A stretch of 24,000 bases of DNA. It comes from Brunnivagina elsteri CCALA 953. GTDB taxonomy: Bacteria > Cyanobacteriota > Cyanobacteriia > Cyanobacteriales > Nostocaceae. Under the pieces are notes generated by a model, which ran no database searches, was not told where the DNA came from, and saw only the letters and a program-made list of their open reading frames with translations. Positions 2,868 to 24,000 of this stretch are shown one piece after another. Within the stretch, counting starts at the first letter, position 1. Every line of letters starts with the position of its first letter. The DNA is taken from assembly GCF_002289455.1 (NCBI RefSeq), contig NZ_NTFS01000032.1, positions 5,174-29,173 of the forward strand. The letters are read 5' to 3'. A program made the translations under genes and the position numbers.

Positions 2868-2910
2868 TTCAGGCAGAAAGAAATTGTAAATAGGTTTACA
2901 AATAATTAAA

Positions 2911-2946: not shown

Positions 2947-2989
2947 TGGTTTATTGCAGGGGTCTTGGGTTGGTTGTACAAAACTTTGG

Positions 2990-3421
2990 CTAACTGAGAC
3001 TATTGATAAATTGGTTCAAAGCTTTTTTAACCTTGCGTCGGTCGTTTGGTTGGCATTCCATCAAAATGCGATCGCGTAATTGTTCCAAGTTTTGGGCACT
3101 ATCGCTTTTTGGTGTTTTTTGTGGTTCTACTGCTGCAAAGTTATTTACTGTCTCATTTTTAGGCAAATTTAATAAAGTAATTTCCAAATCAGACAACCTT
3201 TCAAGAATTGGTGCGATCGCAATTGCAATCAGTTCGTTAGTTCCAGGTTCTCGAACTTGAGTCATTGTTAACTCACGTTGCAACTTTTCATCCAAGGCAT
3301 CACCAACAAAATCCACCAGCTTAACTTTATTAACAGTACAAAAATTCTTCACATCGTCCAATAATTCCGAACGATGGTCAAAGCGAATATTTAGTTGAAC
3401 CCTTCTATTTTCTTCGGTCAT
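2990..3421 (-). CDS. Hypothetical protein (143 aa), possibly with an N-terminal RHH-like fold
   Basis: ATG ORF. The N-terminus RRVQLNIRFDHRSELLDDVKNFCTVNKVKLVDFVGDAL has the strand-helix-helix pattern of CopG/Arc-type proteins. This is a weak call. Confidence 0.5.
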   Translation of the reverse strand: MTEENRRVQLNIRFDHRSELLDDVKNFCTVNKVKLVDFVGDALDEKLQRELTMTQVREPGTNELIAIAIAPILERLSDLEITLLNLPKNETVNNFAAVEPQKTPKSDSAQNLEQLRDRILMECQPNDRRKVKKALNQFINSLS

Positions 3422-4341: not shown

Positions 4342-4695
4342 TCATGGACGAGGTTTAATCAAACCCACCTCAGATAAAACACGTTGTAACTCTTCATGTG
4401 ACATCGCATCAGCAATTCGTTCTTGTAATTCAAGTTTTCTGGTGGTTGCCAACTGCTGAAATGCCCCATTTTTAATTCTGGCTTGCGTCTCCACCAACCG
4501 ACGCTTTACCTCAACCAAGGCTACCAGTTCTTGTCGGTTGAAGTTCCCTGTTAAATCACCATTCTTCAGTAAACAACTAATTAGGCTGGAGATTAGGTAA
4601 ATTTCAGAATCTAACTCACAAACCGAGTATGAATCTTGGTGTCTTAGGAATAAATTCTTTAAATCGCGATCGGATAAATCTTGCTGATAACTCAT
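4342..4695 (-). CDS. Hypothetical protein (117 aa from the ATG at 4695)
   Basis: The ORF track starts at the TTG at 4710, but the ATG at 4695 is preceded by GGAGG at the right distance. It is the last gene of a three-gene minus-strand cluster. Confidence 0.55.
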   Translation of the reverse strand: MSYQQDLSDRDLKNLFLRHQDSYSVCELDSEIYLISSLISCLLKNGDLTGNFNRQELVALVEVKRRLVETQARIKNGAFQQLATTRKLELQERIADAMSHEELQRVLSEVGLIKPRP

Positions 4696-4700
4696 TGCTT

Positions 4701-4871
4701 TTACCTCCAAAGTGCATCATAAATTGCCGCTTGTGGAGTGGTTTCATCCCCAAAAAGCCGATACCTTATAAATTCTGTGCAAGTTAGATTCTGACTCTCA
4801 GCCATGATTTTCAATTGTTCGTGCTGGCGACGATTCAACCGTAAACTCAGCTTGATATGAAATTTCTTCAT
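4701..4871 (-). CDS. Ribbon-helix-helix (CopG/MobC-like) DNA-binding protein, 56 aa. Below the ORF-track size cutoff.
   Basis: Hand translation gives MKKFHIKLSLRLNRRQHEQLKIMAESQNLTCTEFIRYRLFGDETTPQAAIYDALWR. This has a beta-strand (IKLSLRL) followed by two helices, as in RHH proteins. Its ATG overlaps the upstream stop (ATGA at 4868-4871). Confidence 0.65.
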   Translation of the reverse strand: MKKFHIKLSLRLNRRQHEQLKIMAESQNLTCTEFIRYRLFGDETTPQAAIYDALWR

Positions 4872-5371
4872 GCAGCACCATCACTATTGTTTGTAAACAG
4901 GTTTACAACGTTTTTGTTTTGTATGAGTTCTCCAGATGCAATCATACGTGCCCTTTTTTCAGCCTTACGTTCTGCGAAGACTTTCTCCACATGGATTCTA
5001 AGCACCTCATGAATAACAATAACCTGGTTTCCATTCACAGAAAAAGTACTATGAATGTCGGCTGGCAACGAGAACCCTAAATATTCCAGACCATGCTCTT
5101 GTAAAATGCGATCGCCGCTCGAACCATTGAAATAAATTTGGCAAGCTAGATAATCGGCAATTTTGATTAACCTTTCTAAATCACGATTTTTAATGAGTTT
5201 TGAAAGTAAGTTAATTGCCTGACTTTTTTTAGCTTGCGCTCCTTCGACTGACTGCCAACAAGCGAGGAAATGGTTATAAAGTTCGTGCAATTCTAAGGGG
5301 TACTGCCCGTAAATCAGATCGAATAAATGAGGTAATGGTGTTTTAGGGCGTTTGCGAGAATCTAATGTCAT
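4868..5371 (-). CDS. Hypothetical protein (167 aa)
   Basis: ATG ORF and first gene of the 5371->4342 cluster. No recognisable motif. Confidence 0.55.
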   Translation of the reverse strand: MTLDSRKRPKTPLPHLFDLIYGQYPLELHELYNHFLACWQSVEGAQAKKSQAINLLSKLIKNRDLERLIKIADYLACQIYFNGSSGDRILQEHGLEYLGFSLPADIHSTFSVNGNQVIVIHEVLRIHVEKVFAERKAEKRARMIASGELIQNKNVVNLFTNNSDGAA

Positions 5372-5529
5372 TTTGCTTTACTTTTATAAAGTTGTACGTA
5401 CCTCCAATGTAGCAATTGTGTAAAAATCGACTTCTATTCGACACTATCAGTAGTACGTAAATACTAAAGGAGATAGTACGTTAGCTGTATTGGGGTTATT
5501 TTGAGGTTTAAGGTGTGTGATGTCGCGGT

Positions 5530-5568
5530 TGAGGGGTATAGGTCATTTTATAGAATTATCACCCCTCA
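5530..5568 (-). terminator. Hairpin just downstream of the primase/helicase stop
   Basis: tgaggggtata ... tatcacccctca inverted repeat, 20 nt past the stop at 5589. No clear U-run, so function is uncertain. Confidence 0.35.
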
Positions 5569-5588
5569 CTATGCCTTAATTTATGATG

Positions 5589-8216
5589 TCAAGACTTAGT
5601 AATGACAGCTTTCAATTGAATCAAATCTTTAGGGGTTAAAGTGCTGGTTTCCCAGTTACCCCACTCAATCAAGAAAGTATCTCCTTCCAAATCGCATTCA
5701 GTAACCTTGATTACAATCCCATCTTTTAATTCACAACCGTGACCAACCCCCTTTTCTAAATGAATCACATCACCCTTTTGGGGTTGAACATATTTGTAAA
5801 CTGGTGAGAATAAATCGTCCAGATTTGCGCTAAAGGGTTTACAAAAATTATTTAGGGGTTTACAAGATTCGTTCTCTTCATTTGTTAATTCACTTGTACT
5901 ATTTGCATTATTTAGGGGGGGTGTATCACTGAGGTGTATCAGGGGTGTATCAGAAACTAATACTTGCTGTGTAATACTTTCAGGCGTTTTTTCTTCAAGT
6001 GATACACCTGATACACCTTTTTCTATAAAAGGTTGATTTAATTCATTAATACTGAAATTAGATGTATCTTTTTTGTCTTCAGTACATGGTGTAGCTACCT
6101 CTTCCACAACCATTAAGCCATTTATGGTAGACACGGGTACTATTTTCCCCGTAGTCATTGTGTCACTTATCGAACATGGGATATTCAGTATTATTGATTT
6201 ATTTTCAGAAGTTTGGGAAAAAGGTGTATCAGGTGTATCACTATTAGTTGTAATGCTTGCTGCGTCTACGTTTGAACCCTGATACACCTCCTGATACACC
6301 CCCTGATACACCTCTAAAATATTTTCATTATTAATTTTTGGTGTCCAAACAAAAGTTCTAACCCCGTGTCGCATCTGTAGACTACTTGATTTAACCCAAC
6401 CGAGTGCTTTAAGAGCGTCGGAAGCTCTCATTTGTTCACGTTTACCCTGGTTTGCGGGTAAGATGTTCATTACCAGTGTGAGTATTTCCGCAATCGTTGT
6501 ATCCTTCAGCTTGCCCAATTCAATTGCTTGGGATATTACATCTGTCCACGAATCTTCCACAGTGTGCTGGACATTTAGTTGCTTCTGTTGAATTCCTTCC
6601 ATTGGGGTTAACCAGGAATTATATTGTTCACCACGTTTGTAGAGTTTCACCGCAGCAGACCAAATTAAATCTCGCTCTAGGATTAAAGTTTCGACAGGTA
6701 TTGTTTTTAAAACAGGGATTACCCAAAAACGCCTGTTGCCTTCAGGGTCATTCAAAAATTGATTTTGGTTCACTGTCCCTACAAAAGCACTCATTCTGGG
6801 GAAAGTTTCTATTTTTCGCCCATAAGGTGGTCTAAGCTTGTCGTGTTTGGTTGTCAATAAGTTGCGAAGTGTTGCCACATCATTTTTGCGGAACACAACT
6901 TCAATTTCACTTAAATCAATAATCCAAGCTGCACGTAGTTTTAGTTTGTCATCTTTATCGCTACCCCCCACAGCAACTTCTGCGTCATACCAAGATTTAT
7001 AGGGAACAAGGTTTTCCCAAAATTTACTTTTATTGATGCCCTGATGACCTTGCAACACGCAGGCTGTATCGTGCTGACCCCCTGGTTCATATATACGTTT
7101 GACTAAACCAACCAATGTTTTTTTGAGGTAAGTGTTGTACAAAGGTTCGCTTGTTCCGAAATACCGTTCTGCAATATTATCCAATAAATTTTCGTTAACA
7201 TCGGGGTTCTGCCGTTCAACAGACTCAAGGTACGTTCTTACAGGGTGGTATGTTTGCTTTCTAGCTAAATAAGCGATTTTACGGGCAATTTCTTCATTTT
7301 TACCTCCATCATAATCAAATACATCAATCATCCACTCCTTAGCTCGTTCTACGTCAAGAACTTGGGTGTCATACTCAACCTCTAAAGTCATCTCATTAAA
7401 TTTAAGTTGACCACCAAAAATGTCATGAAAAGCTTGTTGCTGTTCCCTTGGGGATAATTCTTCGTCACCACCTTTTTTCGATTTGGGTCTACCACGTTTG
7501 CGATCAGAAGTTTTATATTCAGGGTTCTCATTCCGGCTCACCGTGTTTTGTATGTCAGAAGATGCACCATAAGCACGATTAAGGCTAGAAATATCAACCA
7601 TTTGGGGTAGTACCTCTTCAATAAATTTATTAGCACCAAAATGTAAAATAAAGTCGTCAATTCCTTTTGTGGAAACTTCACCATCACACGCTTCCCATTT
7701 ACCCGAAATGCTGTAAACCGGGTTGTTAGGGCTATGTAGCGCTTTAGCTAATGTTAATTCTGCTAATTTTACCGGGTGTTTTGTTGCAGCGTCGGCATCA
7801 AATCCAATAATGAAACCGAAATTTGCATCTTTAAACTTTTGTAAAGTCTTGGTAAGCTCCCGTTCTTTGGTGTGATTCTCGTGGCTGCTTAACCCTTGCT
7901 CAACACCCGGTAAACTCACACACGGCATTCCTGAATGAAGCGCTACAATCGCCTTCCAAAGTCCTTCTGTAACCAACAAACAAGGGATACCATCAACATG
8001 TATGCAAAATTTCTTTACCTTTTCCAAATCAGCCCAAAAGTTGATATCGCCTGGATGTCGGGGTAATGTTGCGTCATATTGAGCAATTTTCTTTTTAGAA
8101 GGAGATTGGTACTTTCTGATCCGTTTAGTGCCGTCATCCCTTAAGTCGGTATGTGGGAAGTCGGGCATTAATTGCGGATACCCGTCAGCACCCGTTAACC
8201 AAACACCCCCACCCAA
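5589..8216 (-). CDS. Primase/helicase-type replication protein: N-terminal Toprim (DUF3854-like) domain plus a VirE/P4-alpha-like P-loop NTPase domain. The start is unresolved (see findings).
   Basis: Toprim-like residues are LLVTEGLWKAIVA ... GFIIGFDADAATK. The VirE-type block is ACVLQGHQGINKSKFWENL (Walker A-like) ... AAWIIDLSEIE (Walker B-like) ... GTVNQNQFLNDPEGNRRFWVIPV. The frame stays open upstream of the TTG at 8216 as far as 8456. Confidence 0.8.
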   Translation of the reverse strand: MGGGVWLTGADGYPQLMPDFPHTDLRDDGTKRIRKYQSPSKKKIAQYDATLPRHPGDINFWADLEKVKKFCIHVDGIPCLLVTEGLWKAIVALHSGMPCVSLPGVEQGLSSHENHTKERELTKTLQKFKDANFGFIIGFDADAATKHPVKLAELTLAKALHSPNNPVYSISGKWEACDGEVSTKGIDDFILHFGANKFIEEVLPQMVDISSLNRAYGASSDIQNTVSRNENPEYKTSDRKRGRPKSKKGGDEELSPREQQQAFHDIFGGQLKFNEMTLEVEYDTQVLDVERAKEWMIDVFDYDGGKNEEIARKIAYLARKQTYHPVRTYLESVERQNPDVNENLLDNIAERYFGTSEPLYNTYLKKTLVGLVKRIYEPGGQHDTACVLQGHQGINKSKFWENLVPYKSWYDAEVAVGGSDKDDKLKLRAAWIIDLSEIEVVFRKNDVATLRNLLTTKHDKLRPPYGRKIETFPRMSAFVGTVNQNQFLNDPEGNRRFWVIPVLKTIPVETLILERDLIWSAAVKLYKRGEQYNSWLTPMEGIQQKQLNVQHTVEDSWTDVISQAIELGKLKDTTIAEILTLVMNILPANQGKREQMRASDALKALGWVKSSSLQMRHGVRTFVWTPKINNENILEVYQGVYQEVYQGSNVDAASITTNSDTPDTPFSQTSENKSIILNIPCSISDTMTTGKIVPVSTINGLMVVEEVATPCTEDKKDTSNFSINELNQPFIEKGVSGVSLEEKTPESITQQVLVSDTPLIHLSDTPPLNNANSTSELTNEENESCKPLNNFCKPFSANLDDLFSPVYKYVQPQKGDVIHLEKGVGHGCELKDGIVIKVTECDLEGDTFLIEWGNWETSTLTPKDLIQLKAVITKS
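5920..6312. repeat. Ten copies of the 9-mer GGTGTATCA in alternating orientation blocks (FFF RR FF RRR) inside the primase/helicase gene
   Basis: Forward copies are at 5920, 5933, 5944, 6223 and 6232. Reverse copies (TGATACACC) are at 6000, 6009, 6280, 6292 and 6304. All ten are exact. Confidence 0.85.
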
Positions 8217-8807
8217 TTGCGGACTTTTAGTAAATGCTGACGCTTCAAATTTATCAACAGAATAACAATTGTGTAGAACCCACTCTTCAGGTATTTTGCC
8301 TTGAAACCTTTCTATAACTAGCTTTTGGTGATGCTCTGCGGTTAAGCGGGGTACTTCTTTTTCAAATCTTTTTCTATAATGAAAAATTTCACTATCCCAA
8401 TTCCAATCCTCTTCCTTAAAAAACTCCCCTAATTTAATTTTTAGTGAATACTCACTTTATTGAGTACTCGTATTATTTGGTAGAGACTTCTTGAAACGCT
8501 TGTTAGGTACGAGTTGAGTTGTTGGGTATTCACTTTGTTGAGTATTGTTTACTGCCGATGTGTTAGACTCACAATCAGAAGTGGTCTGATTTTTGGCGAA
8601 ATCATTGACTGTTGAAGTATTTAATTCCATAATTTAGATATGTTTTATTTTTGAATCCCCTGTTTTGGTATGTAAACGGAAAGCCAACTCAGGGGGTTTT
8701 ACTTTTTGAAGCTAACAGGCACTAAATTTTTGGCACGAATCGCTAACCTCGGATGGTTTAATTAGTGCGATCGCTTTTTCATAGCACCCAAAATTTTGTA
8801 AACCTAT

Positions 8808-9995
8808 TTACAAGTTCGGTACTTTTGTGTTTGGTGTAATGCCTGCGTAGTGCTTATAAATGACTTCGGGTGAATTCCCTACCCAACTTGCAACGGTTTG
8901 CACTGGGATACCTTTTGAAAGGCACATAGTTATGAATGAATGTCTAGCGTTGTATGGAACTCGATAACGCTGCACTAGCCCCTTTTCCACAAGACTCGTG
9001 ACGATTCCTGGTATAAACTCCCCACGATTGTCATAACCTCGCCAGATACGAGTAAAACCACTAATTTTTATCTCTTTATGGTCAGTATGAGAAGGAAAAA
9101 CAAGCCAATTTTTGTTATATTCTTGGGTTCTACGGTTCAATAGCAACGTTTTTAGCTGCTCATTACAAGGAAACCTACGAAATTCATCAGTTTTCGTGCT
9201 TTTACGTCCATATAAATGTGAATATGACTCACGAAATGTAATCTCGGTGCAATCTGCGTTAATGTGTTCCCATTTAAGTGCGATCGCTTCTCCAATTCGG
9301 CAACCACTAAAAAATAGAAACTTTACAAAATCTGCATAACCCTTGTATAAAGTGTCAGATTCAAAAGCTGAAATTATCGCATCACGTTCTTGGGCTGTAA
9401 AAGGGTCAATTTTGCTCGTGTCCCACCTTTTAACTTTGATATCCGAACCCAAGTCAGTAAATGGGTTTTTTGTGATTAAGCCTGATTTTAAACCCCATAC
9501 ACAGCAAGCATTAATCTGCATTAGCAGTCTTTTCGTTGTCTTAGGGCTGTAATTTGCAACCAAATAGTCACGAATTACGATCGCACTACCTAAATCTTTG
9601 CTAGGTAACGCATTGATAATATTTTTGTATCTATTCTGAAAATCTTTGGTAAAAGTGGTATTTGCTAGTTGAGATTGTTTGAAGTCACAATACTTGTCCC
9701 ACAATTCAACTAAATCAAGACTTTTAACTTTTTGGCGAATCCTTCTTTGGTTAGTATGTAAGTCGGACAACGCATCTTTATAGATTTGTAGTGTTTGGTC
9801 AAAGCAACCGGATTCAGCGTCAGATTCAATAACTAATGCGACACTTTGCACCCTTCTTAAGTTATATGCCGTTGCTTCTAAACCGGAATAGATATATACC
9901 TGTTCTCCACACGTAAATCCACGAGGTAGACGTAAACGCCACCTGTTTTTGTAGGCAACAATGGTAACTTTTTTAATTACTCTTTGTACGTGCAT
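8808..9995 (-). CDS. Tyrosine recombinase / phage-type integrase with a DUF3596-like N-terminal arm-binding domain
   Basis: The N-terminus VTIVAYKNRWRLRLPRG...SGCFDQTLQIYK matches the pattern common in cyanobacterial integrases. The catalytic region has GCRIGEAIALKWEHI (Arg), ARHSFITMCL (His-x-x-Arg) and VIYKHYAG (Tyr). Confidence 0.9.
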   Translation of the reverse strand: MHVQRVIKKVTIVAYKNRWRLRLPRGFTCGEQVYIYSGLEATAYNLRRVQSVALVIESDAESGCFDQTLQIYKDALSDLHTNQRRIRQKVKSLDLVELWDKYCDFKQSQLANTTFTKDFQNRYKNIINALPSKDLGSAIVIRDYLVANYSPKTTKRLLMQINACCVWGLKSGLITKNPFTDLGSDIKVKRWDTSKIDPFTAQERDAIISAFESDTLYKGYADFVKFLFFSGCRIGEAIALKWEHINADCTEITFRESYSHLYGRKSTKTDEFRRFPCNEQLKTLLLNRRTQEYNKNWLVFPSHTDHKEIKISGFTRIWRGYDNRGEFIPGIVTSLVEKGLVQRYRVPYNARHSFITMCLSKGIPVQTVASWVGNSPEVIYKHYAGITPNTKVPNL

Positions 9996-10342: not shown

Positions 10343-10432
10343 CGCGATCGCATCAGATAAATTTTTTACAGGTAAAGACTTGATGATGTTGTAATACCTG
10401 CTTTGAAAGTCTTTGCAATAAGTACTAAGAGT
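10343..10432 (-). pseudogene. Fragment of a second, diverged DUF3596-type integrase gene
   Basis: The translation ..STYCKDFQSRYYNIIKSLPVKNLSDAI aligns with residues TTFTKDFQNRYKNIINALPSKDLGSAI of the intact integrase. It is truncated on both sides, and a MITE-like repeat abuts one end. Confidence 0.65.
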
Positions 10433-10516
10433 AAGCCACAAAATGAATGATCCTGTGTTGTCATGCTGTAGCAAGCTACAGAATGACCGAAGAGCATTTA
10501 TTTCTGTGGAGTTCTC
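10429..10516. mobile_element. MITE-like repeat unit, same family as 18180-18784
   Basis: gagtaagccacaaaatgaatgatcctgtgttgtcatgctgtagc... matches the terminal repeat at 18180 and, in reverse complement, those at 18683 and 18784. Its right half matches the reverse complement of 18505-18552. Confidence 0.7.
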
Positions 10517-10580
10517 CAAAATCACTTGTTTATCGGTTCGCAGTCCAGAATGTATCTAAAATCCAAAATCTAAAATCTCT

Positions 10581-13986: not shown

Positions 13987-15174
13987 ATGAAAATATTAGT
14001 ATTGAGTTGGGAATTTCCACCACGAATTATTGGGGGTATTGCCCGTCACGTTGGTGAATTGTACCCGGATATGGTTAAGTTGGGACATAAGGTACATGTA
14101 ATCACCCCTGAGTTTGGGAATGCACCAATGTACGAAGTCGTTGAGGGAATCCAAGTGCATCGGGTTCCTGTCAATCCTGGAAACGATTTTTTTCACTGGG
14201 TAGTTAACCTCAATCAAAGTATGGGGCAGCATGGTGGTAAAGTCATGGCAGAGGAAGGGGATTTTGATTTAATTCATGCCCATGATTGGTTAGTGGGAGA
14301 TGCTGCGATCGCGCTCAAACACACTTTTAAAGTACCATTGATTGCCACCATTCACGCCACCGAATATGGTAGACATAATGGGATTCACAACGATATTCAA
14401 GATTATATTAATGGTAAAGAAGAGCTTTTAGCTTTTAATGCATGGCGAATAATCGTCTGTACCGATTATATGCGTCGTGAGGTGGAACATGCATTACATA
14501 GTCCTTGGGATAAAATCGACGTAATTTATAATGGGATTCGTGCAGAAAAGAAACTTCACCATCAAAATTTTCACGCTCAAGATTTTCGCCGTTTTTTTGC
14601 CGAAGATGATGAGAAAATAGTTTACTATGTTGGTCGAATGACCTATGAGAAAGGTGTTTCTGTCTTGTTAAATGCAGCTACTAAGGTGCTGTGGGAAATG
14701 GGTGGAAATGTCAAGTTTGTGATTATTGGTGGTGGTAATACTGAACACCTGAAAAAGCAAGCTTGGGATATGGGTATTTGGAATAAATGTTATTTCACTG
14801 GGTTTATTTCCGATGAGTACTTAGATAAATTTCAAACAGTTGCTGACTGTGCTGTATTTCCGAGTCTTTATGAACCCTTTGGTATAGTTGCTTTAGAGAG
14901 TTTTGCTTCTCGTGTACCAGTAGTTGTATCGGATACAGGTGGTTTTCCTGAAGTTGTTCAACACAGCAAAACGGGTATTGTGACTCATACAAATAATTCT
15001 GATTCCCTAGCTTGGGGAATTTTGGAAGTATTAAAACATCCAGGATACAGACAATGGTTAATTGATAATGCTTATCTGGATTTAGAGCGTCGTTTTAATT
15101 GGGCAAAAATCGCGAAACAAACCGAAGATGTTTACACAAGGGTTGTGGAAGAAAGACATCGAGTTGAATGGTAA
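13987..15174 (+). CDS. Glycosyltransferase, family 4 (GT-B fold)
   Basis: MKILVLSWEFPPRIIGGIARHV at the N-terminus. The C-terminal motif is PSLYEPFGIVALESFASRVPVVVSDTGGFPEVV (E-x7-E type). Confidence 0.85.
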   Translation: MKILVLSWEFPPRIIGGIARHVGELYPDMVKLGHKVHVITPEFGNAPMYEVVEGIQVHRVPVNPGNDFFHWVVNLNQSMGQHGGKVMAEEGDFDLIHAHDWLVGDAAIALKHTFKVPLIATIHATEYGRHNGIHNDIQDYINGKEELLAFNAWRIIVCTDYMRREVEHALHSPWDKIDVIYNGIRAEKKLHHQNFHAQDFRRFFAEDDEKIVYYVGRMTYEKGVSVLLNAATKVLWEMGGNVKFVIIGGGNTEHLKKQAWDMGIWNKCYFTGFISDEYLDKFQTVADCAVFPSLYEPFGIVALESFASRVPVVVSDTGGFPEVVQHSKTGIVTHTNNSDSLAWGILEVLKHPGYRQWLIDNAYLDLERRFNWAKIAKQTEDVYTRVVEERHRVEW

Positions 15175-15184
15175 TTACCCGTAG

Positions 15185-15214
15185 GGGCAAACGGTTGTTT
15201 GCCCTTTTATTTTC
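15185..15214 (+). terminator. Rho-independent terminator of the glycosyltransferase gene
   Basis: Perfect 8-bp stem gggcaaac/gtttgccc with loop ggtt, followed by ttttatttt. It begins 11 nt after the stop. Confidence 0.7.
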
Positions 15215-15293
15215 ATGATTTTTAATATATACATGATTTTTAATACATATAAGAGGGCGAACAGCCGTATCGCCCCTACGATAAAATATAATT

Positions 15294-15400
15294 ATACAGC
15301 ACTTCCGGCAGCTATGAGGTACATACTAAAAGCTGAAAGCTATGATTAGAATAGAACTGAGGGGAACAACTGTATTATGTAATAGCCGGAAGTGCTGTAT
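15294..15400. repeat. 107-bp unit bounded by perfect 16-bp inverted repeats (MITE-like or large hairpin)
   Basis: atacagcacttccggc (15294-15309) and gccggaagtgctgtat (15385-15400) are exact reverse complements. Confidence 0.6.
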
Positions 15401-15464
15401 TTGGGTGTAAATAATGATTGCCCATAATTAAAGAATAATTAATTTAGCGATCGCAATCCACTTC

Positions 15465-15715
15465 ATGCAATTATGTCAACGACCCAGGTCTAAAGACACT
15501 GGGCTTCCAGCCTAAGACTTAGATTACAGTTGACCAGATTAAGTCTTAACTGACTACGTTTAAGGTAAGAGTTAAAGACCTACAAAGGGATGCGAAGCTA
15601 GTTCCTTGCTCTAGAAATTGAGGGTTAAACAGATTTATTGGGTTAAGTCAGTGCCTTCAATATAGTACCGACCTTAAACATTATCGAAGCTAACATTACC
15701 CGAAAGGAGGGACTT
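15465..15715 (+). ncRNA. Candidate omega RNA scaffold of the IscB locus. The 5' boundary is approximate; the guide is expected just upstream.
   Basis: ORF-free and same strand as iscB, ending at its RBS. Local stems are the hairpin 15483-15503 (cccag-gtc-taaa-gac-a-ctggg) and a perfect 9-bp stem 15513-15521/15540-15548. Long-range complements are 15558-15565/15672-15679 and a crossing pair 15549-15555/15646-15652. Confidence 0.55.
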
Positions 15716-16999
15716 ATGTCCAAAATATTCGTATTAGATACTGAGGAACGACCATTAGACCCAATACATCCAGCACATGCTAGACAATTATTACGAAACA
15801 AAAAAGCAGCAGTTTTTAGACAATTCCCATTCACAATTATCCTCAAAGAATCAAGACCAGAATCAGCAGTTTCGTCACTTAGACTAAAAATAGACCCTGG
15901 AGCAAAGTTCACAGGGATTGCCTTAGTTAACGATTCAACTGGAGAGGTTATAAATGCTTTCGAGTTAAAACATAGAGGCTTTGCAATTAGAGATGCTTTA
16001 ACTTGCAGAAGACAATTAAGACGTTCTAGACGTGCTAGAAAAACTCGTTACAGAAAACCAAGATTTTTAAATAGAACTCGTCCAGACAGTTGGCTAGCTC
16101 CAAGCTTGCAAAGTCGGATTGATAATATCAAGACTTGGGTTGAGAAGTTGCGTAAATTTGCGCCAATTGAAGCAATTGCAAGCGAACTTGTACGCTTTGA
16201 TATGCAACTAATGGCGAATCCGGATATTCAAGGCAAGGAATATCAACAAGGAACTTTAGCAGGTTATGAAACGAGAGAATACCTACTAGAAAAGTGGGGT
16301 AGACGATGCGCTTACTGTGGCGTAAAAGACGTTCCCTTTCAAGTTGAGCATATTCATCCGAGAGCTAAAGGCGGTAGTAATTCAATTACAAACCTGACCT
16401 TAAGTTGCGAAAAATGCAACACAAAAAAAGGGACTAAAGATATCAAAGAGTTCCTCAAAAAAGACACTTCTAGATTAGAAAAAATCTTGAAACAAGCTAA
16501 ACGACCATTGGCAGATGTCGCAGCCGTAAACACAACTCGATTTGCGTTGTTAAAAACTTTAAAAGCTACCGGATTGCCAGTAGAAACAGGTTCAGGAGGA
16601 TTAACCAAGTTTAATCGCAGTCAACAAAAACTAGAAAAAACCCACTGGATTGATGCAGCTTGCGTTGGAGAATCAACTCCAATTCTCAATATTAAAGGGG
16701 TTAAACCATTGTTAATTACTGCGTCGGGGCATGGCACGAGACAATCATGCAGAACGGATAAATACGGTTTCCCAAGTCGTCACTGCTCTAGAACTAAATT
16801 CCATTTTGGTTTTCAAACTGGAGACATTGTTAAAGCTGTCGTAAAAACTGGCAAAAAAGTTGGTGAATATGTTGGAAGAATAGCAACTCGTGCTACCGGA
16901 AGCTTCAACATTTCTACGACTAACGGATTACTTCAAGGTATTTCCCATAGATATTGTAAAGCCATCCATAAAAAAGATGGTTATGGATATTCAAATTGA
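15716..16999 (+). CDS. iscB: IscB: IS200/IS605-associated RNA-guided RuvC/HNH nuclease (Cas9-ancestor class, also annotated as an RRXRR-domain HNH endonuclease)
   Basis: The domain order is: PLMP-like ERPLDPIHPAHARQLLRNKKA; RuvC-I LKIDPGAKFTGIALV; Arg-rich helix RRQLRRSRRARKTRYRKPRF; RuvC-II ASELVRFD; HNH CAYCG..VEHIHPRAKGGSNSITNLTLSCEKCNTKKG; RuvC-III HWIDAACVG. An AAGGAGGG RBS lies 5-11 nt upstream of the ATG. Confidence 0.9.
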   Translation: MSKIFVLDTEERPLDPIHPAHARQLLRNKKAAVFRQFPFTIILKESRPESAVSSLRLKIDPGAKFTGIALVNDSTGEVINAFELKHRGFAIRDALTCRRQLRRSRRARKTRYRKPRFLNRTRPDSWLAPSLQSRIDNIKTWVEKLRKFAPIEAIASELVRFDMQLMANPDIQGKEYQQGTLAGYETREYLLEKWGRRCAYCGVKDVPFQVEHIHPRAKGGSNSITNLTLSCEKCNTKKGTKDIKEFLKKDTSRLEKILKQAKRPLADVAAVNTTRFALLKTLKATGLPVETGSGGLTKFNRSQQKLEKTHWIDAACVGESTPILNIKGVKPLLITASGHGTRQSCRTDKYGFPSRHCSRTKFHFGFQTGDIVKAVVKTGKKVGEYVGRIATRATGSFNISTTNGLLQGISHRYCKAIHKKDGYGYSN

Positions 17000-17041
17000 T
17001 AAATATTCACTGCGGTTAAAACCGCTTGAGTCGTTTTTCCT

Positions 17042-17062
17042 CTCAGCGCTAAAGCGACTGAG
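17042..17062 (+). other. Hairpin downstream of iscB, structurally homologous to the hairpin at 15483-15503. Candidate IS right-end hairpin.
   Basis: ctcag-cgc-taaa-gcg-a-ctgag compared with cccag-gtc-taaa-gac-a-ctggg. Both share the TAAA loop, the bulged A and the 3' flank TTCCA. Every stem difference is compensatory. Confidence 0.6.
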
Positions 17063-17132
17063 TTTCCAAACATCCCAGGAGTTTTTATGACAACCCTGAT
17101 TTTTCTCTTCACGGGCTAATTACAGAAGGTAT

Positions 17133-18176
17133 ATGACGAAAATTGCGATGTTCCGTAAAATTATTTTCACAAATAGAAATCTCATTAACCCAGCAAAAAG
17201 CTGCAAAACTGCCGCAATTACTTTCATAACTGCCAGTTTTATCATATTTCCTGCGATCGCAACAGCTAAACCCTATCTCAAAGGTAATCCCGCAAATGTA
17301 AATCCTCCTTTGGCAGGTGCGGTTTACAATCTTGGTGGTGGGGGAACTGATGTAGATGGGGCAATTCAATGGATGATTAATAATGCACGGGGATGCGAAA
17401 AATGTTCCAGTAAGGTTGATGTTGTCATAATTCGTGCTGCTGGTAGTGATGCTTATAATCAACCTATTTCTGAAATGGATGGAGTTGATTCAGTAGAAAC
17501 CTTGGTAATTACAAGTAAATCGGATGCAAATACACCTAGTGTTGTGGAAGCGGTTAAGAATGCGGAAGTGATTTTTTTTGCTGGTGGTGACCAATGTAAG
17601 TACGTGGAGAATTTCCAAAATACTAAGCTAGAAAAGGCTGTAGAATCGGTTTCTGCCCGTGGTGGAGCGGTGGGTGGAACCAGTGCCGGAGCGATGATTC
17701 AAAGTGATTTTGTTTACAATTCTTGCCTTAGTAATATTGAATCACGGGATGCTCTGGATGACCCCTATCGTGATATTGATTTTACCTACAACTTCTTACC
17801 TTGGGTGAATTTAAAATATACCGTTGTTGATACCCACTTTGATAAACGCGATCGCATGGGTAGATTAATGGCTTTTACCGCTCGACAAGTTCAAGATGGG
17901 AAAGCAAAATCTGCCCTGGGAATTGGGGTTAGTGAAGCAACATCTGTAGTTGTCGATCGCAATGGAATAGCAAAGGTTATTGGTAAAGGTTCGGCATATT
18001 TTGTTTTAGCTGACCATTTACCGAAGGTTTGCGAAAAGGGGAAACCGTTGAGTTATGCGGATTTTAAAATTTGGAAAGTCAATAATGGTGAAACATTTAA
18101 CTTACGAAATTATCCCCAAAAAGGATATTATTTGCGAAGTGTCGATCGGGGAAGAATTGATTCTAATCCGTATTAA
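17133..18176 (+). CDS. Secreted peptidase S51 / cyanophycinase-like protein
   Basis: The N-terminal hydrophobic segment ends in AIATA. The motifs FFAGGDQ and GGAVGGTSAGAMIQ resemble the Ser-nucleophile region of cyanophycinase-type enzymes. Confidence 0.7.
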   Translation: MTKIAMFRKIIFTNRNLINPAKSCKTAAITFITASFIIFPAIATAKPYLKGNPANVNPPLAGAVYNLGGGGTDVDGAIQWMINNARGCEKCSSKVDVVIIRAAGSDAYNQPISEMDGVDSVETLVITSKSDANTPSVVEAVKNAEVIFFAGGDQCKYVENFQNTKLEKAVESVSARGGAVGGTSAGAMIQSDFVYNSCLSNIESRDALDDPYRDIDFTYNFLPWVNLKYTVVDTHFDKRDRMGRLMAFTARQVQDGKAKSALGIGVSEATSVVVDRNGIAKVIGKGSAYFVLADHLPKVCEKGKPLSYADFKIWKVNNGETFNLRNYPQKGYYLRSVDRGRIDSNPY

Positions 18177-18179
18177 TTA

Positions 18180-18784
18180 GAGTAAACCACAAAATCAATG
18201 ATCCTGTGTTGTCATTCTGTAGCTTGCTACTTACAGAAGCCGCTTGCGCGTCTACCCGCCTGACTTTTCACGGTAAGTCCTCAACCAACCAAACTACGTA
18301 GCTTTTTCCACTGGCTCATTCGCAAGAGTATTAAATTGATGACAATAGGTAACGGAAAAATAGGGGTTGAGAGAAAGCGCAAAATGACCTTTTCCACATG
18401 CCGTGAAAAGTCAGGTCTACCCGCAGGGTGGAACGTACGCGCTGAGTCGCAAAGCGACACGCTGCGCGAACGCGTTGCCGCAGGCTAGAATCTTGCGGAG
18501 ATGCTAGAGAACTCCACAGAAAGAAATGCCCAATGTCATTCTGTAGCTTGCTTCCCGCAGGGTGGAACGTAAGCGCTGAGTCGCCGACACGCTGCGCGAA
18601 CGCGTTACCGCAGGCTAGAATCTCGCGTAGATGCTTCGTTCCTCAGCATGACAACACAGGATCATTCATTTTGTGGCTTACTCCTACCCTTCGGGAAGTC
18701 TTTCGCCTACGTTCCTCAGCATCTCGCGTAGATGCTTCGTTCCTCAGCATGACAACACAGGATCATTGATTTTGTGGCTTACTC
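18180..18784. mobile_element. Cluster of nested or tandem MITE-like elements filling the whole intergenic region
   Basis: The left terminal repeat is gagtaaaccacaaaatcaatgatcctgtgttgtcat at 18180. Matching right ends (reverse complement) are at 18645-18683 and 18746-18784. An 80-nt internal segment is duplicated (18420-18505 and 18554-18635). A smaller inverted-repeat unit tgacttttcacgg...ccgtgaaaagtca (18261-18413) is flanked by gtctacccgc on both sides. Confidence 0.75.
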
Positions 18785-19939
18785 TTACTGTAATTGTCGC
18801 AAACTTTGCACAGTTGAAATAACCTGCTGTGCAACTATTTCTATCTCTTCTTCCGTATTAAATCTACCAATTCCAAAGCGTATCGATGCGTAAGCTAACT
18901 TTTCAGAATGTCCTAAAGCTGTGAGAACATGGGAAGATAAGGTATTTGTTGAAGAACAAGCTGAACCGGAAGAAACTGCCATTACCGACTGCAAACCCAA
19001 AAGTAAAGCTGCACCATCCACACTTTCAAAGCTAATATTTAAATTACCTGGAAGTCTTTGGGTTGGATGTCCATTGAGATGAATCCCTTCGAGTTGTGAA
19101 AGCAGTTTCCACAATTTTTCTCTGAGTTTAGTGATGCGATCGCTCTCTTTTTCTCGTTCTGCTAAGGCAATTTCTATCGCTTTGCCAAAACCGACGATTT
19201 GCGGTGTGTACAATGTCCCTGAACGCATTCCCCGCTCATGTCCTCCCCCATGTAGCTGGGGAGCTAATTTGACTCTCGGATTGCGACGACGGACGTATAA
19301 AGCTCCAATTCCTTTTGGTGCGTAGATTTTATGTCCTGTGAACGACATCAAGTCAATTTGCATTGTCTGGACATCAAGGGGAATCTTTGCGATCGCTTGC
19401 GCTGAATCAGTATGGAAAACGGTATTTTTTTTATGGCATATTCTGCCAATTTCTGCAAGTGGTTGTAATACTCCAATTTCGTTATTTGCTGCCATAATTG
19501 ATACTAAAATGGTATCATCACGGATGGTTTTTTCTAGTAAGTTTAAGTCAATTAATCCATCTTTTTCGACGGGAAGAATTGTAATTTCAAATCCGAGAGT
19601 TTCTAAATATTTACAAGGGTCAATTACCGCATTATGTTCGGTTGCTAAGGTGATAATATGTTGACCTTTTTGAAAATAAGCTTCAGCAATACCTTTAATT
19701 GCTAAATTATTTGCTTCCGTTGCTCCACTAGTAAATATAATTTCTTCTGGTGAAGCATTAATTGCATTTGCTAATATTTGTCGTGCATTTTTGACCGCAG
19801 CTTCTGCTTCCCAACCATATTGATGATTGATGCTAGATGGATTGCCAAAGTATTCTGTAAAGTAGGGAAGCATGGTATCAACAACCCTTTGATCGACTGG
19901 TGTGGTTGCCTGGTTATCGAGGTAGATGGGGCGATGCAT
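18785..19939 (-). CDS. Cysteine desulfurase, class V aminotransferase (NifS/IscS family)
   Basis: SFTGHKIYAPKGIGALY (PLP lysine), HGGGHERGMRSGT and SSGSACSS (catalytic Cys). Confidence 0.9.
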   Translation of the reverse strand: MHRPIYLDNQATTPVDQRVVDTMLPYFTEYFGNPSSINHQYGWEAEAAVKNARQILANAINASPEEIIFTSGATEANNLAIKGIAEAYFQKGQHIITLATEHNAVIDPCKYLETLGFEITILPVEKDGLIDLNLLEKTIRDDTILVSIMAANNEIGVLQPLAEIGRICHKKNTVFHTDSAQAIAKIPLDVQTMQIDLMSFTGHKIYAPKGIGALYVRRRNPRVKLAPQLHGGGHERGMRSGTLYTPQIVGFGKAIEIALAEREKESDRITKLREKLWKLLSQLEGIHLNGHPTQRLPGNLNISFESVDGAALLLGLQSVMAVSSGSACSSTNTLSSHVLTALGHSEKLAYASIRFGIGRFNTEEEIEIVAQQVISTVQSLRQLQ

Positions 19940-20158
19940 TTTGGATTTTGGGATTTTGGGGATAATAAAATGTTTGAAAATAAAATATTTGAAAATAAAA
20001 TGCTTTAAATCGCGCAGAGACGCAGAGGCGCGGAGGAGGAGTTAAGATGTTAATTTATCGTAGTATGTAGATTCTTTCTGCATTCTGAATCCTGCATTTT
20101 GACTTCTGCATTCTGAATCCTGACTCCTGACTCCTGCCTTCTGAATCCTGACTCCTGC
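19938..20158. repeat. Short tandem repeat tracts (STRR-like heptamers and a 15-mer)
   Basis: attttgg units at 19938-19961. tttgaaaataaaat x2-3 at 19964-20006. cgcagag-like units at 20012-20040. ctgaatc/ctgactc/ctgcatt heptamers at 20078-20158. Confidence 0.75.
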
Positions 20159-20159
20159 T

Positions 20160-21494
20160 TTATTGTACTAGTTTATTTATGATGCATTCGGCGATGCGTT
20201 GTGCTGCTCCTGGTTTTCCCATTCTGCGTAAGCCGTTTTCAGCAATGATGTGTAATTTGTCGGGGTAAGCGAGGAGGTTTTTTACTTGTTTGCCGAGGTT
20301 TTGTGGTTGTTCTACCAAGATTATGGAATCACCTAAGAGACGACTTTGTGCTTCGGCAAATCCTGGGTTAAATTGTGGTCCTTTTCCGGGTATGGTAAAT
20401 GCTGGTTTGCCTAAACCGACGAATTGCTCGGTTCCTGTTCCTGCCATTGCGATCGCAATATCTCCCATGTGCAAGCAGTCGTTATAGGCTTTTTGTGTTA
20501 GCAGAAAATATGCATTTTTTTGTTTAAATGTCAATGCTTGAGGGTCGGAAAATTTCAAAGGTAGTTCTTCGATGGGGGATGGTTTCCAGCCGTGGGAGGT
20601 GACAAATTTGGTGAGAATGCTACAGTCAAGATTGGGTGCGATCGCTCCTAAGAAAATCATCGGAGTTGAGGTGTTGGATAGGGAATTGCGAGACATATCG
20701 CACATGGTTTCCATTAGGGATGATGTTCCCAGCATTACTTGCTCCCAATTTTCATAGGCTTCGGGAATGCGGGAACCTGGTAATAAGGTTACGATTAATG
20801 GACGAATAGTTTCTTTACGTTCGGCATCGGTTTCATATAAACGATAAGTTGGAAAAGAAGGTTGTAAATCATCCATCATTGGGTTGCCTAAATCGAAGGC
20901 AGGAATCCCCATTTCTGCTAATATTTTTGTTGTTAAATAGTCTCTAGGAAAGATAGCTTTGCAGGGATTTTTAGTCATTAACCATCGTTCCCAAGGATGG
21001 TAAATTGAACCTGAAAAGTTTTCCCAATATGCACCTTTATTTTTGCGCTTCAATAATCCGAATTCATCGCGTACATAATACTCAGATTTTGCTGTTCCTA
21101 CAAATGCATAGTTGGTTCCGCTAACATATGCAAATAATAATGGGAGAATGTCACCGACGGCTAAAATAGCAGTGGGATTATCAGTTTGTTTTTGAGCTTT
21201 TACCCATTGTCTAACTACTTTGATTTGATTGAGAGTCAGTTTTATTAAACCTCCTTGAACATCCCGCATCAATTGCCGTCCATCCATATAAACGAATCCA
21301 CCTGATGGCATTGTTTTCACGGAACCAATCACGGGAATATTCAGTTTTTGATAAGCATATCCTTCTCCAACTAAGGGTAGTGCGAATATTTCTGGAGGAT
21401 TGGGTAATTGCAAAAGTTCGTGCAAAATCCTCACAGCGATTATATCTTCACCATGTCCGTTACTTAATACCAGTAGCTTTAATTGGGAGGTCAT
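20160..21494 (-). CDS. Lipid-A-disaccharide synthase-related protein (LpxB-like, cyanobacterial type)
   Basis: The N-terminus LKLLVLSNGHGEDIIAVRIL and overall size match my memory of the cyanobacterial LpxB-related family. The gene is divergent from Omp85. Not verified by search. Confidence 0.6.
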   Translation of the reverse strand: MTSQLKLLVLSNGHGEDIIAVRILHELLQLPNPPEIFALPLVGEGYAYQKLNIPVIGSVKTMPSGGFVYMDGRQLMRDVQGGLIKLTLNQIKVVRQWVKAQKQTDNPTAILAVGDILPLLFAYVSGTNYAFVGTAKSEYYVRDEFGLLKRKNKGAYWENFSGSIYHPWERWLMTKNPCKAIFPRDYLTTKILAEMGIPAFDLGNPMMDDLQPSFPTYRLYETDAERKETIRPLIVTLLPGSRIPEAYENWEQVMLGTSSLMETMCDMSRNSLSNTSTPMIFLGAIAPNLDCSILTKFVTSHGWKPSPIEELPLKFSDPQALTFKQKNAYFLLTQKAYNDCLHMGDIAIAMAGTGTEQFVGLGKPAFTIPGKGPQFNPGFAEAQSRLLGDSIILVEQPQNLGKQVKNLLAYPDKLHIIAENGLRRMGKPGAAQRIAECIINKLVQ

Positions 21495-21729: not shown

Positions 21730-24000
21730 ATGCGAGTTTCTAAAGTTGCAATTATGACACTTGCCAGTGTTACTGCTGGCAATCTTTCTGAGTCGGTAAT
21801 AGCTGCACCAACAAATACTGACATACCAGCGAAAACTACTAGTAATTTCGTTGTACCTGTAATTGAAGTCAACAGGGAACGGATTGAGACAATTGCCCAA
21901 CCTGAAACCGGAGATTCCCCCCAATTCTCCCAAAATACAGTCAATGTGCAAAGTCATTCCGGCAACAATTCGACTGCGATCGCAAAGAATGGGGAAATTG
22001 GCAGACAAGGCAACGATGAGAAAGCTCCTGTACCTATTCCTGTTCCAATGTTTTCTGCTGTACGTGAGAAAACACCTGTACAAATTCCCGTACCGATGTT
22101 TTCTGCTCGGCGTGAAAAAGCACCCGTACCTATTCCCGTTCCTGCGATCGCAAACCGTACTCCAACAAAACCAGCTACTTCCAAAAAACCACCTGTTGCT
22201 GCAAAACCCTTAATACCAGCGAAAAAACCTGCTCAGGTTATTCCTCCGACTCCTGCAATTAACGATGAAAATTTAGTGGTTCCGGCTATTGATATTCAAA
22301 TAGTTGGTGCTACCCAAGAATTGCAAGATATAATTCGCCAAGTAATTAAAACTCAAGTTGGTGGTGAAACTAGTAAAGCCCAACTTCAAAAAGATATAGC
22401 CGCAATATTAGAGACAAAATTATTTATAAGTGCCCGTGTAAATAGTAACACTACAAAAGATGGCTTACGGGTTGTGTATCAAGTACAGCCATTAGTGGTG
22501 CGATCGCTCCAATTATCGGGGGCAAAAGCATTAACATATAAAGTCGTTCTCGAACCGTTCCAAAGTCAAATTAATCAACCTGTGAGTCCATCTCAGTTGG
22601 AAAATGCTGTTAAAAAGATTAATAAATGGTACAAAGATAACGGTTACAGTCTCGCAAGAGTAGTTTCGATTTTGCCTGATGAACAGGGTATTTTGACGGT
22701 GAATGTTGCTGAAGGGTTGGTTAGCGATATCAAATTCAAATTTGTGAGTGAAAATGGTGAAGACGTTGACGCTAAAGGGAAACCAGTCACAGGAAGGACT
22801 AAAACAGACTTTATCCGCAAGCAATTAAAATTAAAAACGGGTGACATATTTAAAGATGACGTGGTGCGAAAAGATATTCAGCAATTGTACGCATCCGGTT
22901 TATTTGAAAGTGTGAATATTAACCTCGAAGGGGATGCCACCAAAACTGATGTTGTTTACCAACTCAAAGAAACTGGAGCCAGAGCGATTAATGTCGGAGG
23001 TAGCTATAATGCCGATCAAGGTATTTTAGGTACTTTAAATTACCAAGACAGAAATGTCGGTGGGATTAACGATACATTGAATGCTAACGTTCAAGTTGGT
23101 AGACGGGATTTCCTCTTTGATAGTAGCTTTAATAGTCCTTACCGCACCACCGACCCCAACCGCAACGGTTATACCATCAACGTTTTCCGCAAACGGGGAC
23201 TTTCCGACACCTTCGATGGGGATATTAAACTCCTAAATGGCGATCGCATTCGTGAAGGTAAAGTCGGAGCAAGCGTTAGTTTTCAGCGTCCCATCGATGA
23301 TTGGGATGCTTCCCTCGGTTTTAATTATACCAGGGTAAGTATACGCGATCGCGATGGCAAAATCTCCCCCACCGATGAACAAGGCAATCCTCTCACCCTC
23401 AGTGGTTCGGGCATTGATGACCTGGCAACGGTATCATTTGCAGCCACAAAAGACCAGCGCGACAACCCACTCAATCCCACCAAAGGCTCGATTCTCAAAC
23501 TCAGTACCGAGCAATCAGTACCCATTGGCAACGGAGCCATTTCCATGAACCGTTTCCAAGCCAATTACAGCCAATACACACCAGTTCAAGTCTACAAAAG
23601 CAAACAACCCCAAGTCTTTGCTCTCAACGTCCAAGCGGGAACCGTTTTAGGCGATTTACCACCCTACGAAAGCTTTAATATTGGTGGTCCCAACTCAGTA
23701 CGTGGTTACGATTCCGGCGACATTGGCAGTGGTCGTAGCTACGTACTTGCCTCCGCCGAGTATCGCTTCCCCATCCTCCAAGCATTAGGAGGTGTGGTCT
23801 TTGCTGATTTCGGCTCAGACTTAGGCTCTGGTGATACTGTCCCAGGTAATCCTGCTGGAGTTCGCAACAAACCAGGAATCGGTTTTGGTTATGGCGCAGG
23901 TGTCAGATTTGACTCGCCCCTGGGTTTACTCCGTGCCGACTACGGCATCAACGATCAAGGTGAAAGTCGCTTACATTTTGGGGTTGGACAAAGGTTCTAG
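21730..24000 (+). CDS. Omp85/BamA-family outer-membrane protein (Pro-rich N-terminus, POTRA repeats, C-terminal beta-barrel)
   Basis: The start is taken at MRVSKVAIMTLASVTAG (signal-like). The Pro-rich region is followed by POTRA-like segments, then a barrel with NIGGPNSVRGYD and a terminal ...LHFGVGQRF aromatic end. The stop falls at the last base of the window. Confidence 0.85.
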   Translation: MRVSKVAIMTLASVTAGNLSESVIAAPTNTDIPAKTTSNFVVPVIEVNRERIETIAQPETGDSPQFSQNTVNVQSHSGNNSTAIAKNGEIGRQGNDEKAPVPIPVPMFSAVREKTPVQIPVPMFSARREKAPVPIPVPAIANRTPTKPATSKKPPVAAKPLIPAKKPAQVIPPTPAINDENLVVPAIDIQIVGATQELQDIIRQVIKTQVGGETSKAQLQKDIAAILETKLFISARVNSNTTKDGLRVVYQVQPLVVRSLQLSGAKALTYKVVLEPFQSQINQPVSPSQLENAVKKINKWYKDNGYSLARVVSILPDEQGILTVNVAEGLVSDIKFKFVSENGEDVDAKGKPVTGRTKTDFIRKQLKLKTGDIFKDDVVRKDIQQLYASGLFESVNINLEGDATKTDVVYQLKETGARAINVGGSYNADQGILGTLNYQDRNVGGINDTLNANVQVGRRDFLFDSSFNSPYRTTDPNRNGYTINVFRKRGLSDTFDGDIKLLNGDRIREGKVGASVSFQRPIDDWDASLGFNYTRVSIRDRDGKISPTDEQGNPLTLSGSGIDDLATVSFAATKDQRDNPLNPTKGSILKLSTEQSVPIGNGAISMNRFQANYSQYTPVQVYKSKQPQVFALNVQAGTVLGDLPPYESFNIGGPNSVRGYDSGDIGSGRSYVLASAEYRFPILQALGGVVFADFGSDLGSGDTVPGNPAGVRNKPGIGFGYGAGVRFDSPLGLLRADYGINDQGESRLHFGVGQRF

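Follow-up and report, generated by a model that had tools for sequence, protein, structure and literature searches.

The HEARO RNA motif is said to have been described by Weinberg and colleagues in 2009. Later work showed it to be IscB's omega RNA (Meers et al.; Goltsman et al.), and among the closest described systems is the element that carries GstIscB, ISGst5 of Geobacillus stearothermophilus, whose transposon-adjacent motif (TAM) has been determined experimentally as TTCAT (Meers et al. 2023, 10.1101/2023.03.14.532601). Here we analyse a stretch of 24,000 nucleotides from the cyanobacterium Brunnivagina elsteri CCALA 953 (Nostocaceae; assembly GCF_002289455.1, contig NZ_NTFS01000032.1, positions 5,174 to 29,173; hereafter the window, in whose own coordinates all positions are given). 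Its segment 15475-17086, which comprises an omega RNA, an iscB gene and a conserved terminal region, is very probably an intact, non-autonomous insertion sequence of the IS200/IS605 family, of the IscB type.

The window element and that of GstIscB come from different phyla and are likened here by their architecture. Both are non-autonomous IS200/IS605 elements with iscB and with the guide outside the element, and in both the upstream host gene is co-oriented. The TAM, which for the window element is presumed, abuts the left end in each case (TTCAT there, or ATGAA on the iscB strand; (N)TCAT here), and positions 3 and 5 are where the right-end motif departs from the TAM (TTGAC in the window element versus TTCAT). 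The fifth TAM position is, however, not fixed in the lineage of the window element: the base following ATGA may be A, T, C or G in these cyanobacteria.

OgeuIscB (PDB 7UTN, 7XHT, 8CSZ) resembles the window protein in domain order, catalytic residues, sequence profile (E 1e-58) and predicted fold (template modelling score, TM, 0.72), but the two share only ~21% identity, differ in length (427 aa here, 496 aa in OgeuIscB) and cannot be aligned by sequence over the C-terminal domain. In PMC12660989 the TAM of OgeuIscB is reported as NWRRNA, to be compared with the presumed ATGA of the window element. IsrB and Cas9d share with the window protein the PLMP/RuvC core and the logic of an omega-like guide RNA, with weaker matches in sequence and fold. 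IsrB, according to its published description, lacks the HNH domain which the window IscB possesses, whereas Cas9d has a REC (recognition) lobe and CRISPR arrays, neither of which is present at the window locus. As for the RNA, the match to HEARO (RF02033) is full-length and in the standard position 5' of an HNH/IscB open reading frame (ORF), but the lineage of the window element has an extra 3' hairpin, reaching to the iscB ribosome-binding site, that lies outside the Rfam model. RF02033 has been noted to be without some downstream elements (Meers et al., 10.1101/2023.03.14.532601).

Identity and extent of the insertion

The element is 1612 bp long (Table 1), as set by related cyanobacterial loci (n=80) and by two empty sites. 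The related loci were retrieved from a scan of 185,579 species genomes and nearly all belong to Nostocales and other cyanobacteria; individual loci are cited below by their L numbers. At the 5' side, a multiple alignment of 26 of them shows similarity beginning sharply at 15475, at GTCA(A/G); nucleotide similarity to the window starts no earlier than 15474/15475, and the sequence 5' of 15475 is different in every related locus. At the 3' side, similarity spans two hairpins and ends with ...TTTT, followed by ATGA or GTGA and then by unrelated sequence.

The empty sites, L082 and L083, are two metagenome contigs that encode an 86%-identical peptidase and carry ...CCACTTCATGCATAAATATTAGATAGCAATCCTAAATTTCTCTTCAAGGGC.... 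When the flanks of the window element are joined (up to 15474 and from 17087), they align colinearly with both contigs, and the flank that would supply the guide is present there as well. Taken together, the empty sites and the boundaries therefore delimit the element to 15475-17086, place the guide in the flank ending at 15474 and assign ATGA to host DNA. The element is thus a discrete insertion without counterpart in the same intergenic site of relatives. Inspection of the junctions ATTAT|GTCAAC and TTTTT|ATGAC reveals no trace of a target-site duplication, and relative to the empty site the insertion has neither target-site duplication nor terminal inverted repeats, as fits the family to which we assign it.

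On one side of the element lies a glycosyltransferase gene of the GT4 family (13987-15174), on the other a gene for an S51 peptidase (17133-18176); an earlier interpretation based on the letters of the window only (the sequence-only reading) had likewise placed it between a glycosyltransferase and a peptidase gene. A spacer of only 64 bp lies between the same two genes in Calothrix sp. NIES-4101. The ~300 bp from the glycosyltransferase stop to the element (15175-15474) are likewise absent from this spacer. The sequence-only reading had singled out the right object but placed its ends, at 15465 and 17075, about 10 nt off: the structured RNA starts at 15475 and the element ends at 17086.

Table 1. 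Positions of the parts of the IscB element and of its immediate flanks in the window
Feature	Position	Strand	Basis or sequence
Candidate guide segment, CACTTCATGCAATTAT	15459-15474	+	Host flank directly 5' of the scaffold
Omega RNA scaffold (HEARO RNA)	15475-15715	+	Rfam match and conserved 3' hairpin
iscB gene, 427 aa	15716-16999	+	ORF call; NCBIfam, Pfam and PDB matches
Transposon left-end region	17000-17086	+ (read on the iscB strand)	Conserved in 24 loci (nhmmer)
Left-end hairpin 1	17008-17030		Core GCGG-TTAAAA-CCGC
Left-end hairpin 2	17042-17062		CTCAGCGC-TAAA-GCGACTGAG
Presumed transposon-adjacent motif, ATGA (TCAT on the transposon top strand)	17087-17090	+	Host flank

Omega RNA

Over the 240 nt upstream of iscB, the iscB strand is free of ORFs of 50 aa or more, in agreement with the sequence-only reading, which had proposed a co-oriented omega RNA in this place. 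The covariance-model check that it had suggested returned Rfam RF02033 (HEARO) over the whole model (positions 1-211 of 211) at 15475-15699, with 151 bits against a gathering threshold of 83 (E 3.5e-32). The match ends at 15699, on the same strand as iscB, whose ATG lies at 15716. An alignment of 20 sequences (the window and 19 relatives) yielded an RNAalifold consensus of 33 pairs, with compensatory double changes in 19 of them; 98.8% of the cells were paired, versus 28-41% in slid controls, and none of 500 shuffles reached the observed values.

The two ends of the scaffold overlap with other features of the locus. Its first bases, GTCAA, double as the right-end boundary of the transposon, and the 5' stems of the omega RNA are at the same time the right end of the element. 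Its last hairpin (CCC-loop-GGG, about 15701-15712) shares bases with the Shine-Dalgarno sequence of iscB, GGAGGG, and could couple folding of the RNA to translation of iscB. The three pairs of this hairpin (window 15698-15715) are almost invariant in the 20 relatives and show no compensatory changes; because the pairs are nearly invariant, covariation is neutral on the hairpin. Insertions of 30-110 nt are found in the omega RNAs of L003, L008, L009, L014 and L031, several of which begin TTCGCGCAGCGTG; possibly, they represent nested small repeats.

Candidate guide, left end and presumed transposon-adjacent motif

Copies cease to resemble one another exactly at the 5' edge of the scaffold, so that flanking DNA would supply the guide, as the sequence-only reading had expected and as the alignment of copies now bears out. 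Judged by its position, the candidate guide is thus encoded outside the element. Its length of 16 nt is an assumption made by analogy with OgeuIscB, and no second match to it was found within the 24-kb window.

Beyond its two hairpins, the left-end region includes a terminal AGGAG at 17077-17081, followed by TTTTT. Compensatory changes affect 13 of the 17 pairs of these hairpins, and 84% of the cells are paired, versus 25-41% in slid alignments (0/500 shuffles). By reference to IS200/IS605 biology, the hairpins may be the palindromes bound by TnpA. Among the 48 non-redundant elements with both ends defined, the motif immediately following the element is ATGA in 45 and GTGA in the remaining 3. 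By analogy, we presume that ATGA serves both as the TAM of IscB and as the target and cleavage motif of TnpA.

The IscB protein

The 427-aa ORF has the full IscB domain order announced by the sequence-only reading: a PLMP-like N-terminal domain, RuvC-I (D60), the bridge helix, RuvC-II (E157), HNH (H212) and RuvC-III (H310, D313); a C-terminal domain follows. It matches the NCBIfam equivalog model for IscB, NF040563, over all of its positions (1-314/314) with 451.8 bits versus a cut-off of 175 (E 1e-135), as well as Pfam RRXRR over the entire profile (1-174/174, E 2.8e-70) and Pfam HNH at residues 198-240 (E 5.8e-13). Residues 1-116, the PLMP domain, align with the N-termini of the OgeuIscB-like and TbaIscB chains, and the nearest solved structures by sequence are TbaIscB, OgeuIscB and HfmIscB; IsrB and type II-D Cas9 come next.

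The catalytic motifs named beforehand are all present, namely KIDPG with D60, SELVRFD with E157, VEHIHP with H212 and THWIDAA with H310 and D313, along with PLDP at residues 13-16. In the alignment with the OgeuIscB-like PDB chain, these five residues stand opposite IDPG, LELNRF, HH and HYLDA, at the RuvC and HNH catalytic positions of solved IscB proteins; the OgeuIscB residues in question are, we assume, D61, E193, H247, H340 and D343. In close relatives all five are invariant or nearly so, with conservation of 90% or more for D60, E157, H310 and D313, and E157, H212 and D313 are kept at 90% or more in a diverse alignment (about 40-88% identity). The zinc-binding CxxC pairs of the HNH domain, C198/C201 (CAYCG) and C231/C234 (CEKCN), are conserved across relatives together with H212. 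The bridge helix is represented by residues 98-117, RRQLRRSRRARKTRYRKPRF, within a stretch in which arginine and lysine make up 45% (residues 95-125); a helix is predicted in this region at residues 88-107.

This prediction stems from an AlphaFold2 (AF2) model built with 58 relatives of 39-88% identity, which reached a predicted local distance difference test score (pLDDT) of 88.5 and a predicted template modelling score (pTM) of 0.81; a shallower input (30 relatives, at least 82% identity) gave an unusable model with a pLDDT of 35.5. In a Foldseek comparison with the PDB, the best match to the model was the complex of OgeuIscB with omega RNA and DNA (8csz_D, E 3.5e-27, TM 0.72), and the next ranks were occupied by other IscB, IsrB, Cas9d and Cas9 structures. 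A β-rich C-terminal domain is predicted with confidence at about residues 332-426 and is presumably the TAM-interacting domain. The ratio of non-synonymous to synonymous substitution rates (dN/dS) was 0.07-0.12 against 9 relatives, and therefore the lineage encodes a functional protein.

Transposase and mobility

When 15 further large ORFs of the window were scanned with Pfam, no Y1 transposase was detected, which agrees with the earlier claim that none is present; with no TnpA inside it, the element is non-autonomous. A tblastn search with an IS200 TnpA query (an unverified sequence, so that the result is weak alone) gave no match in the window or in the 80 loci, and the Pfam scans and the clustering of neighbours agree with it. 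This clustering took in every ORF lying up to 4 kb from the iscB gene in each of the 80 related loci and revealed no recurrent partner gene. The neighbour clusters that do recur correspond to common signalling, ABC-transporter and antiporter paralogues and were rejected as IscB partners. In a published survey, tnpA was near iscB in about 1.5% of iscB genes (Meers et al., 10.1101/2023.03.14.532601); an iscB gene without tnpA nearby is the normal state.

Elsewhere in the family there are signs of movement. Anabaena azotica SJ-1 contains five copies whose element ends are near-identical (three of the copies were read at the left end and share it too) and whose flanks differ, which shows that the family has recently been mobile there.

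The type of element itself is well described, and the window holds a common copy of it. At NCBI the identical protein bears the name 'RNA-guided endonuclease IscB [Brunnivagina elsteri]', Rfam has a curated family for the RNA, and IscB makes up a large family of at least 905 clusters at 50% identity (E <= 1e-30), so that the element must be considered already known. The sequence-only reading, in rating the locus as highly noteworthy, overestimated it on these grounds and because the absence of tnpA is the norm.

Proposed mechanism

The following steps are carried over from published work on OgeuIscB and GstIscB. Transcription from the upstream flank would produce an omega RNA whose 5' ~16 nt, CACTTCATGCAATTAT, derive from the host DNA beside the right end. 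IscB and the omega RNA would then recognise DNA that matches the guide and is followed on its 3' side by the ATGA TAM, and both strands would be cut, the target strand by HNH and the non-target strand by RuvC. Such a target would exist only where the element is missing, that is, at the scarless joint CACTTCATGCAATTAT|ATGA left after excision by TnpA, or in an empty sister or homologous copy. Repair of the break from a copy that still carries the element would lead to its retention or copying, whereas moves to new ATGA sites would need a Y1 TnpA acting in trans from elsewhere in the genome. By analogy with the described systems, the likely function of the pair is thus to cut the empty donor site, thereby keeping or copying the element. 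The upstream glycosyltransferase gene is co-oriented with iscB, as in the published orientation bias.

Activity of the copy and alternative explanations

Several observations weigh against an intact and working IscB element. When the omega RNA of the window is folded on its own, it has no significant advantage over shuffled controls (z = -1.07), which is why covariation was used for it. Residues 319-427 of the protein (109 aa) yield no significant sequence match in the PDB, only a chance one, and profile alignments to solved IscB chains end near position 349. The guide length, the use of the TAM and cleavage are all argued from analogy, and the data cover 24 kb of the genome, any TnpA acting in trans and any further copies lying beyond that view. 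With respect to expression, a terminator-like hairpin (15183-15206) lies downstream of the glycosyltransferase gene, and a simple sigma-70 scan of the + strand detected no promoter-like site ahead of the guide, which is weak evidence in cyanobacteria.

These last points lend some weight to the possibility that the window contains a stranded copy, intact in sequence but silent and immobile, with neither promoter nor cognate TnpA and not yet decayed. It would fit with the hairpin between the upstream gene and the element, with the missing promoter-like site, with the lack of tnpA in the window and with the presence of a single element and a single left end within the 24 kb. Decayed relatives are also known, with an internal stop in L020 and shortened ORFs in L068, L070 and L071. 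However, the ORF of the window has the consensus length of 427 aa with all catalytic residues, the low dN/dS argues for function in the lineage, and a scan for consensus promoters says little in cyanobacteria. We regard this alternative as rather unlikely; moreover, it concerns the activity of the element and not its identity.

Far less probable is a domesticated IscB, in which the nuclease and its RNA would have been recruited for RNA-guided regulation or defence of the host. The absence of tnpA nearby and the strong purifying selection on the gene would be expected in that case as well, but both transposon ends, the TAM and the position of a flank-derived guide are kept exactly as in the mobile relatives, the catalytic residues are intact, and nothing else in the window matches the guide. 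In addition, the element is missing at the orthologous site of relatives and is therefore a recent insertion rather than a conserved host gene.

A stand-alone, McrA-like HNH restriction or homing endonuclease preceded by a 5' untranslated region structured by chance is hardly credible. Pfam HNH matches and the label given to close relatives by the Joint Genome Institute (JGI), '5-methylcytosine-specific restriction endonuclease McrA', speak for it, but HNH accounts only for about residues 198-247, the remainder being RRXRR/RuvC; the protein as a whole scores above the cut-off of the IscB equivalog model and has matches among IscB structures, and the 5' region belongs to a specific RNA family. 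The RRXRR/RuvC, NF040563, PDB/Foldseek and HEARO matches thus refute an enzyme of this kind. Many near-identical IscB proteins (hits P0123-P0238) bear the McrA name at JGI, a misnaming explained by its being drawn from the HNH domain alone.

Equally negligible is a minimal type II (II-D-like) CRISPR-Cas9 effector, for which there are weak matches to Cas9d and Cas9 models and structures but which is rejected by scores below the cut-offs (Cas9d 53 bits versus 375, Cas9 25 versus 100), a length of only 427 aa without REC lobe, the lack of CRISPR-like array repeats in the window and the lack of any match to Cas protein families among the window ORFs scanned with Pfam.

Insertion at stop/start junctions in related elements

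Among the relatives of the window element, the flanking motif often coincides with the beginning of a gene. In 24 of the 48 non-redundant elements, the ATGA or GTGA provides the start codon for a co-oriented ORF of 60 codons or more; in 17 of the 48 a co-oriented upstream ORF abuts the element in such a way that the first G of the element completes its last codon, and 12 of the 48 combine both features. For ORFs of at least 100 codons, an exact start at the flanking motif was found at 22 of 53 non-redundant sites, compared with 10.6% of background ATGA (p = 6e-9). On the upstream side, co-oriented ORFs of at least 60 codons run up to the element in the G-completing frame in 23 of 71 loci (not de-duplicated), versus 7 and 0 loci for the other two frames (p = 1.5e-6). 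Many of the ORFs that start at the flanking motif are real host genes, as confirmed by Pfam domains: position 1 of the profile falls within the first 5-13 residues for shikimate dehydrogenase, GT2, AAA_23, response-regulator and homoserine dehydrogenase, and in the HicB and metallophosphoesterase examples the domain starts near profile position 1 (3-4). Examples of junction loci are L005 (3769-5433), L034, L047, L014 and L018, with empty sites in L085 (2421-2560) and L087.

The ends of the element appear suited to such places. Its first bases, GTAA in many copies, can restore the stop codon of the upstream gene, and its last bases, GGAGG plus 4-6 nt, present a Shine-Dalgarno-like motif before the downstream start codon. 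In Dolichospermum circinale a copy sits in the ATGA overlap of mrpC and mrpD, which is intact in D. compactum, and neither protein is changed: CCA-TGA becomes CCG-TAA because the element begins with GTAA, while mrpD retains its ATG behind the element-supplied GGAGGAGG. At junctions of this kind, transcription by the host would make the omega RNA, and the last stretch of the upstream gene would serve as its guide.

We tentatively put forward, as an idea with somewhat less than even prospects, that the two ends of this cyanobacterial IscB lineage may be adapted for a harmless fit into ATGA stop/start junctions of host operons. The pattern may represent such an adaptation, or only selection on which ATGA sites can be tolerated. 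The window element itself displays neither junction feature, with 10 open codons on each side. Its end, AGGAG-TTTTT, together with ATGA (17077-17119) leads into a 10-codon ORF, MTTLIFLFTG*, which starts 46 bp before the peptidase gene and stops 13 nt short of the start of that gene (17133), itself an ATGA.

Other features of the window

Several repeats lie between the glycosyltransferase gene and the element. A 22-nt imperfect inverted repeat (15167-15293) is located near the end of the gene and is followed by a perfect 16-bp inverted repeat (15294-15400, 75-nt spacer), of which no copy occurs in any fetched locus. Just 5' of the guide, at 15447-15454, stands the octamer GCGATCGC, presumably the cyanobacterial HIP1 palindrome.

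At the beginning of the window, 11-1160 (+) contains the 3' part of a group II intron, including an ORF for a reverse transcriptase and maturase (11-1075) and a match to Rfam RF00029 at 1083-1160 (51.7 bits versus 40) that presumably corresponds to domains V/VI; the 5' end of the intron lies beyond the window start. The region of about 2880-9995 (-) is a probable integrated mobile element and encodes a tyrosine integrase (8808-9995), a VapE-like/DUF3854 protein of the primase-helicase type (5589-8216) and several ORFs without Pfam match. Inverted repeats of 23 nt (2880-2902 / 8795-8817) and of a perfect 26 nt (5998-6242) are found in the same part of the window.

Downstream of the IscB element, between the peptidase gene and a cysteine desulfurase gene, repeats resembling miniature inverted-repeat transposable elements (MITEs) occupy 18174-18790. 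Their terminal inverted repeats of 40-43 nt (AGAGTAAACCACAAAATCAATGATCCTGTGTTGTCAT...) surround internally duplicated sequence, a further end copy is located at 10423-10523, and the small ORFs called within them are probably spurious. Five overlapping copies of a 28-nt repeat with 14-nt spacing (TTCTGCATTCTGAATCCTGC-like) lie at 20076-20159, 5' of the ORF 20160-21494, and three tandem 48-nt repeats at 22017-22160 fall inside an Omp85/POTRA gene.

Significance

For the window, the result amounts to one more intact unit of IscB and omega RNA among at least 905 clusters, of a kind that standard pipelines recognise. Its practical value is that of a fully delimited natural example, in which the position of the guide, the scaffold, the nuclease, the left-end hairpins, the presumed TAM and the reconstructed target can all be placed, and the locus points to ATGA as a short TAM, of 4 nt, for a compact nuclease of 427 aa. 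The junction pattern across the family could matter more than this copy. If the ends of these elements do preserve the stop codon of the upstream gene and a ribosome-binding site for the downstream one, this would explain both how promoter-less guide RNAs come to be transcribed and why insertions inside operons are tolerated.

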